A DNA stretch of 64,000 nucleotides from an uncultured Holophagales bacterium (GCA_963844885.1 CAWJQA010000006.1:608366-672365), one strand, 5' to 3'. Numbered from the stretch's first letter, positions 40,938 to 47,751 are shown. Notes: generated by a model from the sequence alone, not told the origin. Numbers and translations: made by a program.

Positions 40938-41084
40938 TTGATGGATGCTCATCTCGCGGCGCTCGCGATCGAGCACCACGCCACGCTTTGCACGACGGAT
41001 CGGGATTTTGACCGGTTCCAGGGACTCCGTCTCCACTTCCCGATCGCGTCACGCTCCCACGAGCCCCCTCCGCTCATGAGCTAG
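40938..41084 (+). pseudogene. VapC/PIN toxin C-terminal remnant preceded by antitoxin-like fragment
   Basis: MDAHLAALAIEHHATLCTTDRDFDRFQGLRLHFPIAS matches only the last ~35 aa of PIN toxins. The upstream frame ends ...DKIEELLDEVEGPFRL*. Confidence 0.35.
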
Positions 41085-41186: not shown

Positions 41187-43646
41187 TCAGCGAGGTTTGG
41201 CGCCAGGGGTCGCTTCTGCCTTGAGCCCGTACTGACTCAGCCTCTTACGCAACGTGTTGCGGGAGAGGCCGAGCGTCCGGCTGGTCTCGTTGAAGCGGCC
41301 CTGGCAGCGGGCGAGGCCCTCCGCGATGAGCTGGCGGTCGTAGAGCGCCAACGCCACCTTGTAGCTTTCTCCGGAAAGGCGGGCCGGCAGAGGGGGCGGC
41401 TCGGCGGTAAAGAGCTGCGCCCGGTCCTGCCGTGCCGGCGCCACGCCGGGCAGCTCACTCGGCTGTGCCGCTACGGCCGAAGCCGTGACCGCGTCTGGCG
41501 AAGCCCAGCAGCGCACGAAGCTATTCCGCGCCTCCAGCAGGTGAAGGTCCGTCAAGCGCCGGGCGTCAACCAGGGCCTGAAGGTCGCGCCAGAGTTGGAT
41601 CGTCTTGGCGTGGCGCTCCTCCCCGGCCTTTTTCATTCTCTCGATCGCTTCCTCGCAGACCCGGGCCGCCTTCGCGAGCTCGCCCCGCTTGAACAGAAGC
41701 TTGAAGCGGGTCAGCAGGGTCAGGAGGGCGTCCTTGTAAAGCCCGGCCTCCATACGAGTGGAAATGTTGGCGTTGAACGCCGCATCCGCTTCCCGCTCAA
41801 ACCCGAGAGCGTCGAGCACGAACGCCTCCAGGTAGCTCGACTGGAGCTCCGTGCGCGCTCCACCAGCCTGCCTGGAAAGACGTATCGTGGCGTCAAGGCA
41901 ACACAGCGCTTCGGTCGGGCGCCCCAGGTCCACAAGGCTCGAAGTGATGATGTTCCGCGCCAGGATCTTGAGTCGGACCTGGCCCGGCGCCAGTAGCCTC
42001 AGCGCCTCCTCCGCGCGATCGACGGCCTCCGAGTGCCGGTCGGCGGCCATGAGGGTGTTGGCTTCCTTGACCGTGGTGAAGGCCGCTCCGGCGGCATCCC
42101 GGATTCTGCGGTAGAGGGCCGCGGCGCGCGCCAGCAAGGACAGGGCCTCTTCGTGATGGCACATGTCCGTTGCAAGCGACGCCTGGAGCGAGAGCAGCCG
42201 AGCGTCACGAGCCGGGTCGCCGGTTCCCCGGCCGAGATGGCTCCGCGCGTTGCCGAAGGCGGCGGCAGAGCCTTGCCAATCCCCTGCCAACCGGCGGCAG
42301 TTCCCTTTGACCCCCAGGGCCGCGCCCTGAAGGTCGAGCTTGACCGGCGCCGGACAGCGGCTTGGAGGGAGGATGCCGGCCAGGGCGTACGCGACGGACG
42401 CCTCCTCTTCGCCGCGATGGGGTTCGATCAGCGCAGCCGCGGCAGCCTCCTCCAGGATCGTTTCGACCAACTCGCGCGTCTGGAGCATCCGAACGGACTT
42501 GATCCGGGCAAGTTGCTCCGCGGTGGAGCACGACCGGAGATCCTCCCACCAGACCCGTGCCCGCAGCCGGCTCAGAGCCCTTCTGCCCTCCTCGTCGAGC
42601 CGGACGAGGCCGGCGCCATCCGCACCCTCCGCGGAGGCATCCTGCGAAACGTCCACCGCGATGCCATACCTCTTGATCTTTGCTCGGAGCGTGCCGGGGG
42701 CGATCTTGAGCTGTCGCGCGGTCTCCAGGATGCGGCCTCCGCACTGGGCAAGTCCTTTCCCGAGGAGCGCGCGGTCATAGCGTTCCAGGGCCGCCTCGTA
42801 ATCATCCCAGGAAGGGTTTGCCTCCGGGCTCGGCAGCCCGTCCCAGTTTTCGGATTCGGAATGGACCGCGACGCTGCGCTGCATGGGGGCCTGCTCGGCG
42901 GCGCCCGTGTTTCCTCCGCCTCCCTCCAGAGGAGATCCTTGGGCGGGAACGTTCCAGTGCCGCGCGAGGAAGCACCGAGCCGAAAAGAGCTGGTGCTCGC
43001 TCAAGCTTCGAGCCTCGACCAGGGCCAGGAGACCGCGCCAGAGGCCTTCCACCTGCTTTTGACAAGGCACTTCCGCCTCCCGCATCGCCGCGAGCGCCTC
43101 TTCACAAGCGTGGGCCGCCTTGTCCAGCTCTCCCCGCCGGTACAGCAGCTCGAAGCGGGTCATCATGGTCAGAAAGGCGTCCTTGTAGAGTTCGGCTTCC
43201 ATGCGCTTCGCGATGTTTCTGCGGAAGGCTTTCTCCGCGTCCCGGGCATGGCCCAGGGAATCGAGCAAGAGCGCTTCAAGGTAGTCCCCCTGAAGGTCCG
43301 GCCGCCGTTCCGGGAGGTTCTCATCGAGCGGGCGGGTAAGGGCGTAGCTCGTCAACGCCGCGGCCGGCCGCCCGAGGAACACGAGGCTGGAGGTGATGAT
43401 GTTCCTCGCCAGCATCTCAAGGCGGATGTCCCTCGGCGTCAGCAATCCCAAAGCCTCTTCCGCTCGGGCCATGGCTTGGTCATAGCGGCAGGCGGCCAGG
43501 AGTGTATTGGCCTCTTTGACCGCGACGGTCGCAAGAGCGATCGGATCAACCGCTTTGCTATAGAGAGGGGACGCTCGGGCCAGACAAGTCTCAGCCTGCT
43601 CCAGATAGCCGGTGTCCATCGCGAGCGATGCCTGGCTCGAAAGCAA
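41187..43646 (-). CDS. TPR-like repeat transcriptional regulator(s) with C-terminal Fis-type HTH; two tandem paralogous units fused in one 819-aa ORF
   Basis: Two internally homologous modules each end in a Fis-type HTH (ETARQLKIAPGTLRAKIKRYG, ETSRTLGLSRNTLRKRLSQYG). TPR-like helical repeats are present. Confidence 0.6.
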   Translation of the reverse strand: MLSSQASLAMDTGYLEQAETCLARASPLYSKAVDPIALATVAVKEANTLLAACRYDQAMARAEEALGLLTPRDIRLEMLARNIITSSLVFLGRPAAALTSYALTRPLDENLPERRPDLQGDYLEALLLDSLGHARDAEKAFRRNIAKRMEAELYKDAFLTMMTRFELLYRRGELDKAAHACEEALAAMREAEVPCQKQVEGLWRGLLALVEARSLSEHQLFSARCFLARHWNVPAQGSPLEGGGGNTGAAEQAPMQRSVAVHSESENWDGLPSPEANPSWDDYEAALERYDRALLGKGLAQCGGRILETARQLKIAPGTLRAKIKRYGIAVDVSQDASAEGADGAGLVRLDEEGRRALSRLRARVWWEDLRSCSTAEQLARIKSVRMLQTRELVETILEEAAAAALIEPHRGEEEASVAYALAGILPPSRCPAPVKLDLQGAALGVKGNCRRLAGDWQGSAAAFGNARSHLGRGTGDPARDARLLSLQASLATDMCHHEEALSLLARAAALYRRIRDAAGAAFTTVKEANTLMAADRHSEAVDRAEEALRLLAPGQVRLKILARNIITSSLVDLGRPTEALCCLDATIRLSRQAGGARTELQSSYLEAFVLDALGFEREADAAFNANISTRMEAGLYKDALLTLLTRFKLLFKRGELAKAARVCEEAIERMKKAGEERHAKTIQLWRDLQALVDARRLTDLHLLEARNSFVRCWASPDAVTASAVAAQPSELPGVAPARQDRAQLFTAEPPPLPARLSGESYKVALALYDRQLIAEGLARCQGRFNETSRTLGLSRNTLRKRLSQYGLKAEATPGAKPR

Positions 43647-44199
43647 CCCTGCCTCCCGCGCCGGCTCTCCGGTACCGCATTCGAGATGGCCTCGGGCCTC
43701 TTTGAAGGCTTTCGGAAGAGCCGCGCCAGTCCGCCGCCAGCCGGCGGCAGTTACCGACCACCTTCATGGCCTCGCTCTGAAGGTCATTCCTGAGAGCTTC
43801 GGAAATGTCTTGCTTGGAAAGGCTGCCCGCCAGCTCGTACGCGACGAGCGCCGTCTCCTCGCCGAGGAACGGATCGTTCGGCGCGGCGGCTGAAGCCGCC
43901 GCGATCACCGTGTCGAACATCTCCCGCGTCCGAAGGTCCGCCTCGGCCTTGATGCGCCCGATCTGTTGCTCGGCGGAGAGGCTCGCCAGCTCCGTCCACC
44001 GGGCGCGCGCCCGCGCCCGGCCCATAGCCGTTCTCTCTTCCTCCAGCCGGGACCGTTCCAACTCCGCGAGGACCCCATAGGCACGATCCCAGCACGGTGT
44101 GCAGCGGGCGAGGTGCGAGGCGGTGGCCGCCTCCTCGGACCCGACCGCCTGGCGGGAGAAGAACCGGGCCAGCGTGGAGGGCGAAAGGTGCTGCTCCAT
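43591..44199 (-). CDS. N-terminal region of the first regulator paralog with ZAS-like HxxxCxxC motif (joins the 41187..43646 frame via 1 apparent frameshift)
   Basis: MEQHLSPSTLARFF...HLARCTPCWDRAYG (anti-sigma zinc-finger-like motif). The segment LVAYELAGSLSK...GNCRRLAADWRGS is homologous to the N-terminus of module 2. Confidence 0.5.
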   Translation of the reverse strand: MEQHLSPSTLARFFSRQAVGSEEAATASHLARCTPCWDRAYGVLAELERSRLEEERTAMGRARARARWTELASLSAEQQIGRIKAEADLRTREMFDTVIAAASAAAPNDPFLGEETALVAYELAGSLSKQDISEALRNDLQSEAMKVVGNCRRLAADWRGSSESLQRGPRPSRMRYRRAGAGGRVAFEPGIARDGHRLSGAG

Positions 44200-44253
44200 T
44201 CCAAGCCTCCTCTTGAATTGTGACCAGCGCGTCAGAATACACGAAGAAAGACG

Positions 44254-44277
44254 GAGGGCGGAAAAAACCGCCCTCCT
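44254..44277 (-). terminator. intrinsic terminator-like hairpin downstream of the small peptide gene
   Basis: GGAGGGCGG-AAAAAA-CCGCCCTCC perfect 9-bp stem. On the minus strand the loop is T6 and a T-rich tract (GTCTTTCTT) follows. Confidence 0.55.
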
Positions 44278-44311
44278 TGAAGTGAAGTGCTCTCAGGCGC
44301 CCGAAGCGAGC

Positions 44312-44464
44312 CTAGCCGTCGGGATCGAACTGGCCACCGAAGTTCGGCGTGGCTCCGCCGTTGGGATCGAACTGGTTGCCGAAGTCTGCGGTGGCTCCGT
44401 CGGGATCAAAGAGGTTTCCGAAGTTCGCCAGCCCCAATGCTAAAGCCCAGAGAAGACGAGACAT
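44312..44464 (-). CDS. 50-aa secreted peptide with three tandem 13-aa repeats (not in ORF track, under 60 aa)
   Basis: RBS GGAAAGG 8 nt upstream. MSRLLWALALGLA (signal) + NFGNLFDPDGAT / ADFGNQFDPNGGATP / NFGGQFDPDG*. Terminator hairpin about 35 nt downstream. Confidence 0.45.
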   Translation of the reverse strand: MSRLLWALALGLANFGNLFDPDGATADFGNQFDPNGGATPNFGGQFDPDG

Positions 44465-44738
44465 ACCAATACCTGCCTTTCCGGGAGACGCTCAACCCGC
44501 GGATCAGACATTGACCCGGTCAAAAAAGGTCTCCCGGGCCGGAGTGTGCCTGTTCGGGTGGATTGGGACAAGGCCGGTGCCGGGTCAGGGAGCTGGGCGA
44601 CAAAAAAAGTCCCGCTCCGTCCTGGGCCGACTTTGCGATGATTCGCCGCGACGAAGTTTCTCCATGCTGAAAGGAGAGAGCCATGAAACGGAGCCCGCGT
44701 CATGAACGTCGTCGGAATCCAGAGGAGGCAAGCTCACA

Positions 44739-45092
44739 ATGGCAGCGCCAAAGAAGCTCCTGGCCGTTCTCAGAAAGCATCTCGATTCGTTGAATGAGCC
44801 CTACCTCGGGGTGGAACGCCGTATTGGGCTGCCGAGTGGGACCATCGGCAAGCTCCTTGCCGGAGAAATGTACCTTCGCCTTCGCCACATCGCCCTGATA
44901 GGGGGAGTTTTCGGCGTCTCCGTCCTCGAGTTGTTTTGCGCGGCGTACGGCCCCAGAGGAGGGCTGGCGCGCTTATCCAAACTATTCGTGGCGGATTTTG
45001 TGAGCGAGGAGTTGGAGAAGCTGTTCCTTACAGGAAAAATCGACGAGCGAGAATTGGCGACACGAATCAAGAATCTCAAAGTGGAGGAGTGA
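44739..45092 (+). CDS. XRE-like HTH domain protein
   Basis: LGVERRIGLPSGTIGKLLAGEMYLRLRHIALIGGVFGVSVLELF. Lower-GC segment. Confidence 0.5.
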   Translation: MAAPKKLLAVLRKHLDSLNEPYLGVERRIGLPSGTIGKLLAGEMYLRLRHIALIGGVFGVSVLELFCAAYGPRGGLARLSKLFVADFVSEELEKLFLTGKIDERELATRIKNLKVEE

Positions 45093-45142: not shown

Positions 45143-45517
45143 ATGCAAGCGAATGACTTCTTCGAGCAGATCGGCCCAACTCTGGTCATGCTGCGTGTAA
45201 GAGCCGGGTTGTCTGCTGCTTCTGTAGCGAGAATGGCCCGAGTAGGCAAGAGTCAAATATCGAAGTATGAAACAGGAAAGGAGAGTCCCAAGTTTGAAAG
45301 CCTCGCGAGGATACTCGACGCACTCAACGTTGAGCCCCTGCCCTTCTTCTACTACGTGCATTCGATTAGCCGCGGTGTTACGGATGAGCGGCTGAGGATA
45401 GAGCTCACGCTGATTGAATCGGGTCGAAAAGCGAATGGCTTGAAGGTTACCGGACGACTCCTGACGCTCGACCAACTGGTACTGGTGTGTCTGACTCCTG
45501 ATGAGGAAGGCGGTTGA
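45143..45517 (+). CDS. XRE family helix-turn-helix transcriptional regulator
   Basis: LSAASVARMARVGKSQISKYETGKESPKFESLARILDALNVEP canonical XRE HTH. Confidence 0.7.
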   Translation: MQANDFFEQIGPTLVMLRVRAGLSAASVARMARVGKSQISKYETGKESPKFESLARILDALNVEPLPFFYYVHSISRGVTDERLRIELTLIESGRKANGLKVTGRLLTLDQLVLVCLTPDEEGG

Positions 45518-46134: not shown

Positions 46135-46362
46135 GGCACGTCTCTCCTCTCGTTGGCCACCAGAGTAGAAGCCGGGTAGCCTCATCGCCACATCTCTCGG
46201 GGTGGCCCTCCGGCCCACTCCGGGCGGTCTTGGATCCCCACCCCCAGGGGTGGCGGAAGCGCCCCTCCCAAACCCTCCCTTGGCATGGTGTGCTTCCCGG
46301 CGTGCTCCCGTACGCTCCTCACAACGGAAGAAACCGTGAAGGCACAAGGGGAGACCCGGACC

Positions 46363-47751
46363 ATGAACGACCTCTGGCAGCCGATCCTGTTCGACCGCGA
46401 CATGCTGCTCAAGTACGACCGACCAGGGCCCCGCTACACCTCGTATCCGACCGCACCCCACTTCGAGGATGGGTTCGGCCACGCCGAGTACTCGCGGCTC
46501 CTGGAGCGGAGCGCGGCTTCGCAACGCCCGCTGTCGCTCTACGTCCACATCCCCTTCTGCGCGCACCGCTGTTTCTTCTGCGGCTGCAACGTGACCATCT
46601 CGCGCGACCGCCAGTGGGGCCGCCGCTACCTTCCCATGCTCGCCCGCGAGATGGAGATGGCCGCCGAGCGTCTCGATGCCGGCCACCGCGAGGTCGTCCA
46701 GATCCACTGGGGTGGCGGCACGCCGACCTTCCTGCCGCCCGAGGATCTCACCGAGCTGATGCAGCTCATCCGCCGCAACTTCCGCCTGTCGGATACCTGC
46801 GAGATCGGCGTCGAGGTCGATCCGCGCGAGTGCTCACCCGCCCATCTCGACGCGCTCGCGGAGGGCGGCGTCAACCGGCTCAGCATGGGCTTGCAGGAGC
46901 TCGATCCGCAGGTACAGAAGGCCGTCAACCGCATCCAGACCCGGGACGAGACCTGGGCGGTGCTCGACGGCGCCCGGCAGCGCGGCATCGAGAGCATCAA
47001 CGTCGACCTGATCTACGGTCTCCCCCACCAGACGCCGGAACGCTTCGCCGCCACGCTCGCGGACGTCCTGCGCATGGCGCCGGACCGGCTGGCGCTGTTC
47101 AACTTCGCCTACCTGCCCGCGGCCTTCCCGCACCAGAAGGTCATCGATGCGCAGGCGCTGCCGTCCCCCGACACCAAGCTGAGGATGCTGGAGGAGGCCG
47201 TCGCCACGCTCACCTCGGCCGGCCTCGTGTTCATCGGCATGGACCACTTCGCGCGGCCGGAAGACCCGCTGGCGCTGGCGCTGCGCGACCGGAGCCTGAC
47301 GCGGAATTTCCAGGGTTATACCACCTGCGGCCACGCGGACCTGGTGGGTTTCGGCGTGTCGTCGATCGGCGAGGTCGGCGGCGGCTACGCCCAGAACCTC
47401 AAGTCGGTGGCCGAGTACGGTGCGGCCGTCCAGAGCGACCGCTTCGCCACCTGCCGCGGCCTCGTGCTCGACGAGGAGGACGTGCTGCGGCGCGACGTGA
47501 TCCTGCGCCTGATGTGCCAGTTCCGGCTCGACAAGCGCGACGTCGAGCGCCGGTACGCGATCGAAAGCTTCGACCGCCGCTTCGCCGCCGAGCTGTCGCA
47601 GCTCGAACCCATGGCCGAGGACGGGCTGGTCGAGATCGACCGCGACAGCATCGAGGTCACCCCCCTGGGCCGGCTGCTGGTGCGCAACATCGCCATGAGC
47701 TTCGACGCCTATCTCGGAAAGTCCACCGTGCGCTACTCCAGGACCGTGTGA
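46363..47751 (+). CDS. hemN: oxygen-independent coproporphyrinogen III oxidase (radical SAM, HemN)
   Basis: MNDLWQPILFDRDMLLKYDRPGPRYTSYPTA N-terminus, CxxxCxxC (CAHRCFFCGC) and the HWGGGTPTFL motif. Confidence 0.9.
   Translation: MNDLWQPILFDRDMLLKYDRPGPRYTSYPTAPHFEDGFGHAEYSRLLERSAASQRPLSLYVHIPFCAHRCFFCGCNVTISRDRQWGRRYLPMLAREMEMAAERLDAGHREVVQIHWGGGTPTFLPPEDLTELMQLIRRNFRLSDTCEIGVEVDPRECSPAHLDALAEGGVNRLSMGLQELDPQVQKAVNRIQTRDETWAVLDGARQRGIESINVDLIYGLPHQTPERFAATLADVLRMAPDRLALFNFAYLPAAFPHQKVIDAQALPSPDTKLRMLEEAVATLTSAGLVFIGMDHFARPEDPLALALRDRSLTRNFQGYTTCGHADLVGFGVSSIGEVGGGYAQNLKSVAEYGAAVQSDRFATCRGLVLDEEDVLRRDVILRLMCQFRLDKRDVERRYAIESFDRRFAAELSQLEPMAEDGLVEIDRDSIEVTPLGRLLVRNIAMSFDAYLGKSTVRYSRTV

Follow-up and report, generated by a model that had tools for sequence, protein, structure and literature searches.

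A repeat-peptide gene and a ZAS/TPR regulator gene form a conserved pair in Acidobacteriota that looks like a peptide-signalling cassette

The DNA considered here is a stretch of 64,000 nucleotides from an uncultured Holophagales bacterium (GCA_963844885.1, CAWJQA010000006.1:608366-672365), called the window throughout and always meant at its full 64-kb length, and the subject is a pair of adjacent genes within it, all of whose features lie on the minus strand. The first gene encodes a 50-residue peptide with a signal-like N-terminus and three short repeats, and the second encodes a large regulator that joins a ZAS-like zinc domain to tetratricopeptide repeat (TPR) modules and Fis-type helix-turn-helix (HTH) domains. 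The pair is undescribed in databases and in the literature searched: neither the peptide nor the cassette has a model in Pfam, NCBIfam, Rfam or PADLOC, literature searches on FDPNG/WDPNG peptides and on RRNPP systems in Acidobacteria returned nothing relevant to it, and the genome annotation labels its genes only "hypothetical" and "HTH domain-containing protein". The pair recurs in hundreds of sequences from soil Acidobacteria and resembles a peptide-signalling circuit, of a type described so far chiefly in Gram-positive bacteria. Intracellular peptide sensing of the RRNPPA type is regarded as a trait of Bacillota and their phages. In soil Acidobacteria, which are abundant and difficult to culture, cell-cell signalling has hardly been studied.

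The peptide gene and the regulator gene

A sequence-only reading of this region had picked out a 50-residue open-reading frame (ORF) with a ribosome-binding site, a signal-like N-terminus, three tandem repeats and a strong hairpin terminator, and each of these elements is present in the window. The product of the ORF is MSRLLWALALGLANFGNLFDPDGATADFGNQFDPNGGATPNFGGQFDPDG, with an arginine at position 3, a hydrophobic stretch LLWALALGLA that has G-L-A at its end, and the repeat units NFGNLFDPDG, DFGNQFDPNG and NFGGQFDPDG. Judged from composition, the candidate signal cleavage site lies between G-L-A and N in the window peptide and between S-W-A and A in the long forms of the family; in a codon alignment, the window ORF and that of the related metagenomic locus L001 have in common a 24-codon in-frame deletion after the h-region. 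The stop codon of the small ORF is followed after 112 nt by the ATG of the regulator (44199).

The regulator gene is interrupted in the window, where it is split into overlapping ORFs in different frames (44199-43591 and 43646-41187), and the public assembly has the same break, protein P0011 being 100% identical to the window ORF. The frameshift (Table 1) may be an assembly error or the mark of a pseudogene, and the window copy of the receptor may therefore be mis-assembled or inactive. Frameshifts were also found at two further loci from metagenome-assembled genomes (MAGs), in the regulator of L025 (L025:6001-7342, with a stop after 100 residues) and in the peptide gene of L027 (L027:5664-5903, with the ATG out of frame with the WDPNG units), and they bear on whether the one near 43712 is real. 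Intact orthologues are 991-1033 residues long. The sequence-only reading had described two to three tandem paralogues with TPR-like repeats and Fis-type HTHs, the first with a ZAS-like motif; the domains hold, and the supposed paralogues resolve into the two halves of one frameshifted gene, which are 45% identical to each other.

Pfam recognises HTH_8 (PF02954) twice in the regulator (best E = 5.8e-15) together with TPR_12 (E = 1.6e-10), and matches that fall below the respective cut-offs were obtained for TPR_MalT (PF17874, E = 2.4e-8) on the regulator and for NsdA_fam_reg (E = 2.9e-9) on a paralogue. Both HTH domains carry an HTH_8 motif, ...GISRNTLRAKIKKYGL, near that of Fis. The models of NtrC, PspF and DhaR match the regulator only in the HTH_8 part, with no AAA+ sigma-54 domain. 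An AlphaFold2 model of an intact orthologue (pLDDT 83.5) is all-helical, each half consisting of a TPR solenoid, a disordered linker and a three-helix HTH, and Foldseek with the whole 997-residue model returned only generic TPR solenoids, among them the peptide-binding LGN (TM ~0.5), with no RNPP structure in the top 50 PDB matches. No stretch of 19 residues attains transmembrane hydrophobicity, so the regulator should be cytoplasmic and soluble.

The zinc ligands of the N-terminal domain follow the ZAS motif, defined as H/C-X24/25-H-X3-C-X2-C (PMC6432622). H4, H29, C33 and C36 are invariant in alignments A3 and A5, the last three are invariant in A1 as well, and the zinc pattern is present in 31/32 regulators, that is, in every one with a locatable start. 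A PDB profile search with the regulator N-terminus gave ChrR as its sole match (E = 0.13), with all four zinc ligands aligned. The model of residues 1-162 (pLDDT 94.9) overlays ChrR at 2.0-2.3 A over 53-54 residues with 26% identity; Foldseek assigns this match a probability of 0.94-0.99 but an E-value above 1 (E = 1.2), and the Pfam zf-HC2 match to the N-terminus is below threshold. The domain is thus likely of the ZAS anti-sigma type, with statistical support under the usual thresholds, and it points to an anti-sigma ancestry of the regulator.

Conservation of the pair and its wider family

A first homology search with the window peptide returned nine homologues, and a profile search extended these to 261 (E <= 1), the few with a taxon being Thermoanaerobaculia. 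Median pairwise dN/dS, the ratio of nonsynonymous to synonymous substitution rates, is 0.27 among the peptide genes; in the codon alignments, indels leave the reading frame intact and the F-D-P-N-G codons show synonymous changes. Conservation of the small ORF, which the sequence-only reading had made decisive, is therefore strong at the protein level, and the 261-match family, the low dN/dS and the conserved linkage to the regulator described below together indicate that the ORF is more than chance. The small ORF is a real coding gene under purifying selection.

Composition was analysed in 121 of these sequences. Position 3 is R, K or H in 113/121, and residues 4-15 have a mean Kyte-Doolittle hydropathy of 2.4, so that by composition the N-terminus looks like a Sec signal. 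The rest of the peptide has between 1 and 5 units (most often 3) that recur every 13-15 residues, and the unit consensus is D(-6) [A/Y/V/H](-5) G(-4) [S/G/N](-3) x(-2) [W/F](-1) D-P-[N/D]-G, the -5 position having also been given as [A/Y/V/F] (D-[A/Y/V/F]-G-x-x-[W/F]-D-P-[N/D]-G). With a mean net charge of -6, this repeat region is strongly acidic, and its turns are rich in D/N. The last unit forms the exact C-terminus (DP[N/D]G) in 117/121 peptides. The residues at -5 and -1 are uniform across all units in 80-81% of the peptides, compared with 23-25% (maximum 36%) after units were shuffled among peptides, and positions -3, -2 and the N/D position (+2) are near random within peptides. The units have thus diverged while -5 and -1 stayed constant within a peptide, making these two positions type-defining, as expected if all units of one peptide fit one type-specific partner.

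Linkage of the two genes was examined from both sides. Starting from the peptide, a gene of roughly 1000 codons that encodes two HTH_8 domains begins 112 nt downstream (114 nt in one case) in 8/9 contexts. Starting from the regulator, a scan of one genome per species gave 16 loci, all from Thermoanaerobaculia, Holophagales or Acidobacteriota MAGs, and the peptide gene lies immediately upstream on the same strand in all 15 for which upstream sequence is available. A metagenome scan added 15 loci with the same outcome, so the co-occurrence of repeat peptide and regulator that the sequence-only reading had asked about extends to all regulator loci for which the upstream DNA is available. In the two match tables, contigs of equal size were also noted for at least 20 additional pairs of peptide and regulator clusters. 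The peptide and the regulator are a conserved two-gene cassette of Thermoanaerobaculia and Holophagales (Acidobacteriota). More than one cassette may occur in a genome: MAG SOY_29_metabat_132 has three, with W units in five copies, F units in four and S/N units in three (L014, L017 and L024), and the 942-kb contig to which the window belongs encodes a second regulator, P0046. A phage origin was rejected, as no cassette was found on viral contigs, and a defence system was rejected as well, PADLOC yielding generic HTH matches only.

An exhaustive profile search (E <= 1e-30) recovered 158 regulator clusters at 50% identity, the named ones all from Thermoanaerobaculia or Holophagales, which fall into length classes of about 1000, 820-835, 520-560 and 440-460 residues. 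Relatives of 444-453 residues (L020, L022, L026, L027 and L036) retain the ZAS motif and one TPR module and have no HTH, and others of 526-568 residues have one HTH. The peptide gene is kept in all HTH-less and one-HTH relatives, most with the same boxes upstream (see below), indicating that the constant pair is the peptide and the ZAS/TPR sensor; the obligate one-to-one linkage of the peptide gene to this cytoplasmic sensor survives changes of the output domain. A distant member of 447 residues is still preceded by a signal-peptide ORF with a single unit (...GRSVIDPNG-stop) and a terminator. In a more distant one, P0336 (461 residues), the gene (L044:602-1987) overlaps the stop codon of, and is translationally coupled to, an extracytoplasmic function (ECF) sigma gene (L044:66-605) that carries Sigma70_r2 and r4. 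Genuine sigma/anti-sigma operons whose sensor is a cytoplasmic TPR protein thus belong to the wider family. No sigma gene was found in the window, in the cassette loci or in the examined flanks of related loci. The scaffold is accordingly an anti-sigma/TPR sensor, of which the peptide-linked branch lost an adjacent sigma gene or never had one and gained HTHs in sub-branches.

Transcription signals and neighbouring genes

The upstream region of the peptide gene has a conserved layout, both in alignments and in the 15 distinct loci that match a strict pattern and on which the hexamer counts of Table 1 are based. The two hexamers were not called by a sigma-70 consensus scan, and their promoter role is proposed from position and conservation. 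As a candidate -10, CACACT would be weak compared with TAtacT of the regulator gene, and the peptide promoter may therefore need an activator or a sigma factor other than the usual one. Box 1 is found at an equivalent place ahead of the peptide gene in 20/27 loci; across loci it reads TTGACC-N1-3-GGTCAA, 17-21 nt after the -10-like hexamer, and is followed by box 2, the ribosome-binding site and the ATG. The window, L001, L006 and L011 have a 13-bp form of it (TTGAC-CGG-GTCAA), and most other loci one of 14 bp (TTGAC-N4-GTCAA). The core of the 14-bp form, TTGA-N6-TCAA, resembles CRP/FNR-type sites and may be one; its position is unsuited to class II activation, and in the window clade the spacer is N5. 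At L002, box 2 is a clear second copy (TTGACC-ACCT-GGTCGA).

An RNA element in this 5' region was rejected, as Rfam gave no match at E <= 1 and the RNAalifold consensus reached only -0.67 kcal/mol with four pairs. With neither an RNA fold nor an Rfam match, the elements are read as a weak promoter with DNA operators, boxes 1 and 2 being putative operator sites. Two other promoter types were considered and rejected. A sigma-54 promoter would fit the GGCAC that is present, but the GC is misplaced in the window clade, the regulator has no AAA+ domain and inspection found no convincing -24/-12 pair; for an ECF-type promoter, the candidate -10 (CGTC) lies in a CGTCTC that is not conserved in other loci.

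The terminator hairpin of the peptide gene, GGAGGGCGG-TTTTTT-CCGCCCTCC followed by GTCTTTCTTC, has G-C in 8/9 pairs and a folding energy of -19.7 kcal/mol, and it forms in both the minimum free energy (MFE) and the centroid fold with no alternative anti-terminator structure. A hairpin with a T-tract stands at the same place in 17/18 loci with different stems (GGAGGGCGG, GGAAGGAGGA, AAGGAGGAC and others), and in nearly all loci TAtacT, TATTCT, CATAAT or TATAGT occurs at a fixed position just past it, as a putative -10 for the regulator. The terminator and this -10 indicate that the two genes are separate transcription units with possible read-through. At L021, L031, L039 and L040, the spacer between the genes measures 295-334 nt instead of about 112 nt (L039:2205-2500, L040:2166-2500) and contains a G+C-rich long inverted repeat of about 200 nt that resembles an inserted miniature inverted-repeat transposable element (MITE) or repetitive extragenic palindromic (REP)-like element.

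Table 1 Features of the cassette and its surroundings in the window (positions counted from the first letter of the window)
Feature	Position	Strand	Description
-35-like hexamer TTGTCC, peptide gene	44566-44571	-	TTGTC[C/T/G] 17-18 nt upstream of CA[C/G]ACT
-10-like hexamer CACACT, peptide gene	44543-44548	-	CACACT in 14/15 loci, CAGACT in 1/15; ACT invariant
Box 1, putative operator	44511-44523	-	Inverted repeat TTGACC-G-GGTCAA; once in the window against 0.01 expected
Box 2, putative operator	44492-44506	-	Imperfect inverted repeat TGATCC-GCG-GGTTGA; conserved beside box 1 in alignments
Ribosome-binding site GGAAAGG	44482-44476	-	G[G/A]AAGG 7-11 nt ahead of the ATG in all loci
Small peptide gene, 50 residues	44464-44312	-	Sec-like signal and three D/N-F-G-x-x-F-D-P-[D/N]-G units, ending DPDG-stop
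Intrinsic terminator	44276-44253, tail to 44243	-	9-bp G+C-rich stem with a 6-nt loop and a T-rich tail; 35 nt past the stop codon
-10-like hexamer TATTCT, putative promoter of the regulator	44234-44239	-	Assigned by position
Regulator gene, 1003 residues after repair	44199-41187	-	ZAS-like domain; helical/TPR solenoid and Fis-type HTH in each of the two halves
ZAS-type motif	44190-44092	-	H4-X24-H29-X3-C33-X2-C36; HLARCTPC at residues 29-36
Frameshift	~43712	-	One extra A (CCGAAAGCC against CCGAAGCC) in DNA alignment with L001 (95.7% identity)
First Fis-type HTH	42657-42800	-	Residues 467-514 of the repaired protein; Pfam HTH_8 in two stretches; local hidden Markov model (HMM)
Second Fis-type HTH	41220-41363	-	Residues 946-993; Pfam HTH_8 E = 5.8e-15, best stretch 769-806 of the 819-residue ORF; local HMM
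XRE-type HTH gene pair, divergent	44739-45092 and 45143-45517	+	Pfam HTH_26 (weak), HTH_31/HTH_3; possibly accessory
HemN-like radical SAM gene	46285-47751	+	Radical_SAM and HemN_C; 1.8 kb from the peptide gene
PIN-domain (VapC-like) fragment	40938-41084	+	C-terminal 48 residues; PF01850 E = 1.5e-4

Clustering of neighbouring genes found only two recurrent kinds, GNAT genes (8 loci) and XRE genes (5 loci), and no modifying enzyme conserved with the cassette. The GNAT gene (Acetyltransf_3, E ~1e-37) adjoins the cassette at L012, L013, L016, L020, L021, L023, L026 and L027, mostly divergently and 150-220 nt from the peptide ATG (for example L012:4947-5495, minus strand), and is more conserved than the regulators, at 66-69% identity between loci. 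An extra box 1 lies upstream of it at L012, L013 and L021, about 50 nt from its start at L012, and the enzyme may share the regulation of the cassette or have the peptide as its target. In place of the GNAT gene, the XRE pair of the window or one member of it adjoins the cassette at L001, L014, L017 and L024. The HemN-like radical SAM gene of the window has an ordinary HemN architecture and is not conserved beside other cassettes, and is therefore unlikely to modify the peptide.

The 95% similarity between the window and L001 is confined to 44988-41056 and the flanks differ; the PIN-domain fragment at the lower end of this region suggests a rearrangement or insertion boundary beside the cassette. 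In the P0009 group, the peptide gene and the same 5' boxes are followed by genes for a 249-residue signal-peptide protein and a 324-residue protein (L002:1089-3306, also L003-L005). The latter has several DxDxDG-like loops, and its precomputed Pfam label, PF26745 'SPM', was not recovered by hmmscan (E <= 0.001).

A candidate signalling cassette, its rivals and known systems

Given this pairing, our preferred reading, held tentatively and at somewhat less than an even chance, is that of a signalling cassette made of a secreted peptide and a cytoplasmic TPR receptor, analogous but not homologous to RRNPPA systems. The peptide would be exported and trimmed into DP[N/D]G-terminated units, after which it or a fragment of it would re-enter the cytoplasm and bind the TPR groove. 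Binding would alter the output of the sensor, through DNA binding by the HTHs, release of a sigma factor from the ZAS domain or both, and this output would feed back on the peptide promoter. The outcome would be a circuit for cell-cell or self-signalling that places an RRNPPA-like logic on an anti-sigma/TPR scaffold. This reading is favoured because the linkage tracks the TPR module rather than the DNA-binding domain, because each paralogue keeps a private peptide of distinct type, and because both the tandem copies and the C-terminal rule have counterparts in RRNPPA propeptides (PMC11343458). The LGN-like solenoid and the cytoplasmic sensor without a transmembrane segment were counted as further support.

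Several observations weigh against it. Peptide types follow the regulator phylogeny, and co-variation is not separable from co-inheritance; an analysis of co-variation between peptide type and receptor residues was abandoned for this reason and because about 30 pairs are too few. Units of the F and W kinds are combined in 13 peptides, and the P0009 group (L002-L005) has the peptide gene without the regulator. The boxes sit downstream of the promoter-like hexamers and persist at loci with an HTH-less sensor, so that an HTH encoded by the cassette cannot be their sole binder and a simple autoregulatory loop is not general. A classical anti-sigma role in stress or redox response, which requires no peptide ligand, would suit the ZAS domain and the relative whose gene is coupled to that of an ECF sigma factor. 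Finally, the hosts are presumed to be diderm, and no oligopeptide importer of the Opp type is linked to the cassette, across whose hosts' envelope an exported peptide would need to pass back.

The main rival, which we judge somewhat less likely, takes the pair as a regulator and its target and nothing more. A different cue, such as thiol oxidation at the HHCC ligands or the occupation of the TPR groove by a metabolite or protein of the cytoplasm, would switch the adjacent gene directly or via a sigma factor; the peptide would never be sensed, serving instead as an extracytoplasmic effector such as an acidic metal-binding, matrix or antimicrobial peptide. Much at the locus accords with this: the ZAS motif and a probable ChrR-like fold, the relative in a genuine sigma/anti-sigma operon, the operator-like boxes and weak -10 at the peptide promoter, the acidic repeat region with its D/N-rich turns, and the separate terminator of the peptide gene and promoter of the regulator. 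Such an arrangement leaves unexplained, however, why the peptide ends exactly in DP[N/D]G (117/121), why -5 and -1 are type-specific across units, and why each paralogous sensor in one genome has a private peptide gene of a different type. HTH-less sensors cannot themselves bind the boxes, and we know of no metal-binding motif that fits the peptide, which counts against this alternative as well.

The three remaining alternatives are minor. In a secretion-coupled form of partner switching, which we consider improbable, the TPR protein would hold the unexported pre-peptide and act on DNA or on a sigma factor only after export, in the manner of the class II TPR chaperones of type III secretion. 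The tight one-to-one linkage and the cytoplasmic location of the TPR protein would suit it, and PcrH-type TPR chaperones are among the weak Foldseek matches of the N-terminal model; these matches (E > 2) are not significant, however, an ordinary Sec-type signal needs no dedicated chaperone, and 1-5 units are poorly suited to a stoichiometric one.

Just as improbable is a precursor of a ribosomally synthesised and post-translationally modified peptide (RiPP), whose repeats would be multiple cores modified at the aromatic residue or at Asp/Asn by an unlinked or loosely linked enzyme, maybe the GNAT, in a pathway controlled by the regulator. A small precursor-like gene followed by a hairpin terminator is common in RiPP clusters, the repeats give a multi-core architecture, and at 8 loci the GNAT gene (E = 1e-37) lies divergently beside the cassette. 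No GNAT gene adjoins it in the window or at L001, however, and neither the neighbour clustering nor the HemN-like gene, ordinary and unconserved elsewhere, provides a modifying enzyme that travels with the cassette; a Sec signal is unusual for RiPP leaders, and no RiPP precursor family of NCBIfam matches the peptide. A cis-acting leader peptide, in which translation of the small ORF would control read-through of the terminator by attenuation or arrest and the product would be irrelevant, agrees with a small ORF and terminator immediately ahead of the regulator, from which a conserved 112 nt separate the ORF, but is very improbable, given the hairpin in both the MFE and centroid folds with no anti-terminator alternative, the conserved -10 of the regulator after the terminator, a unit number that varies from 1 to 5 beside a conserved signal peptide, the 295-334 nt spacers with an inserted inverted repeat at L021, L031, L039 and L040, and the P0009 loci that keep the ORF without the regulator.

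The signalling reading can be taken further, to a form that we regard as doubtful: an independently evolved pheromone system of Acidobacteria, with a Sec-exported precursor of 1-5 copies, a cytoplasmic receptor derived from a ZAS/TPR protein, an output through a sigma factor (in HTH-less forms) or through Fis-type HTH DNA binding, and pherotype-like specificity at -5/-1. It would be the first RRNPPA-like family of intracellular peptide sensing outside Bacillota and would link quorum sensing to the evolution of anti-sigma factors. If the peptide is a ligand, several hundred cassettes would extend the RRNPPA logic to a diderm phylum by convergence from a different scaffold, and they would offer a directly testable ligand-receptor pair, as the peptides are short and easy to synthesise. 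If it is only an effector, the family is still a large unannotated group of secreted peptides, with a new ZAS/TPR regulator architecture that has zero, one or two HTHs.

Among known systems, the cassette has points in common with three groups of regulators besides the RRNPPA systems. Like the class I ZAS anti-sigma factors ChrR and RsrA, the regulator has the exact H-X24-H-X3-C-X2-C motif; its first ~54 residues superpose on the ChrR anti-sigma domain, with scores short of the usual thresholds, and its distant relative P0336 is coupled to an ECF sigma gene; it differs in having no adjacent sigma gene, in sensing through one or two TPR solenoids and in its fused HTHs. Regulators of the MalT/LAL and NsdA types likewise have a TPR_MalT-like solenoid followed by a C-terminal DNA-binding domain (matches below cut-offs), whereas the cassette regulator has no NTPase, its HTH is Fis-type rather than LuxR-type, the module is tandemly duplicated in one chain and a peptide gene is linked to it. 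With the Fis/NtrC family it has in common two clear HTH_8 domains, but it has neither the AAA+ sigma-54 activation domain nor a receiver domain.

The closest likeness in logic is to the RRNPPA systems of Bacillota and their phages (Rap-Phr, PlcR-PapR, NprR-NprX, Rgg-SHP and AimR-AimP), in which a cytoplasmic TPR receptor is likewise encoded beside a small gene for a pro-peptide, Sec-type there and Sec-like by composition here, with the functional motif at its C-terminus, HTH-bearing and HTH-less receptors (Rap being HTH-less) belong to one family, and several paralogous cassettes with different peptides may occur in one genome. Tandem pheromone copies also occur in some RRNPPA propeptides (PMC11343458). 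There are also differences. No homology is detectable, with no RNPP-type Pfam match to the regulator; the HTH belongs to the Fis type and sits on the C-terminal side of each TPR module, in contrast to the N-terminal XRE-type HTH of RNPP proteins; the regulator has an N-terminal ZAS domain; the gene for the peptide precedes that for the regulator and has a promoter and terminator to itself; each unit is an acidic motif of 10 residues; and the hosts are Acidobacteriota rather than Bacillota or their phages, with the cassette absent from viral contigs. Of the RNPP or Rap-Phr logic that the sequence-only reading had proposed, the logic itself is strengthened by the HTH-less relatives that keep the peptide, the multiple cassettes per genome, the type-defining -5/-1 residues and the precedent for tandem copies (PMC11343458), and membership of the RNPP family falls away on HTH type and position, homology and phylum. 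On these sequence comparisons, the cassette would work like an RRNPPA system without being a member of that family.

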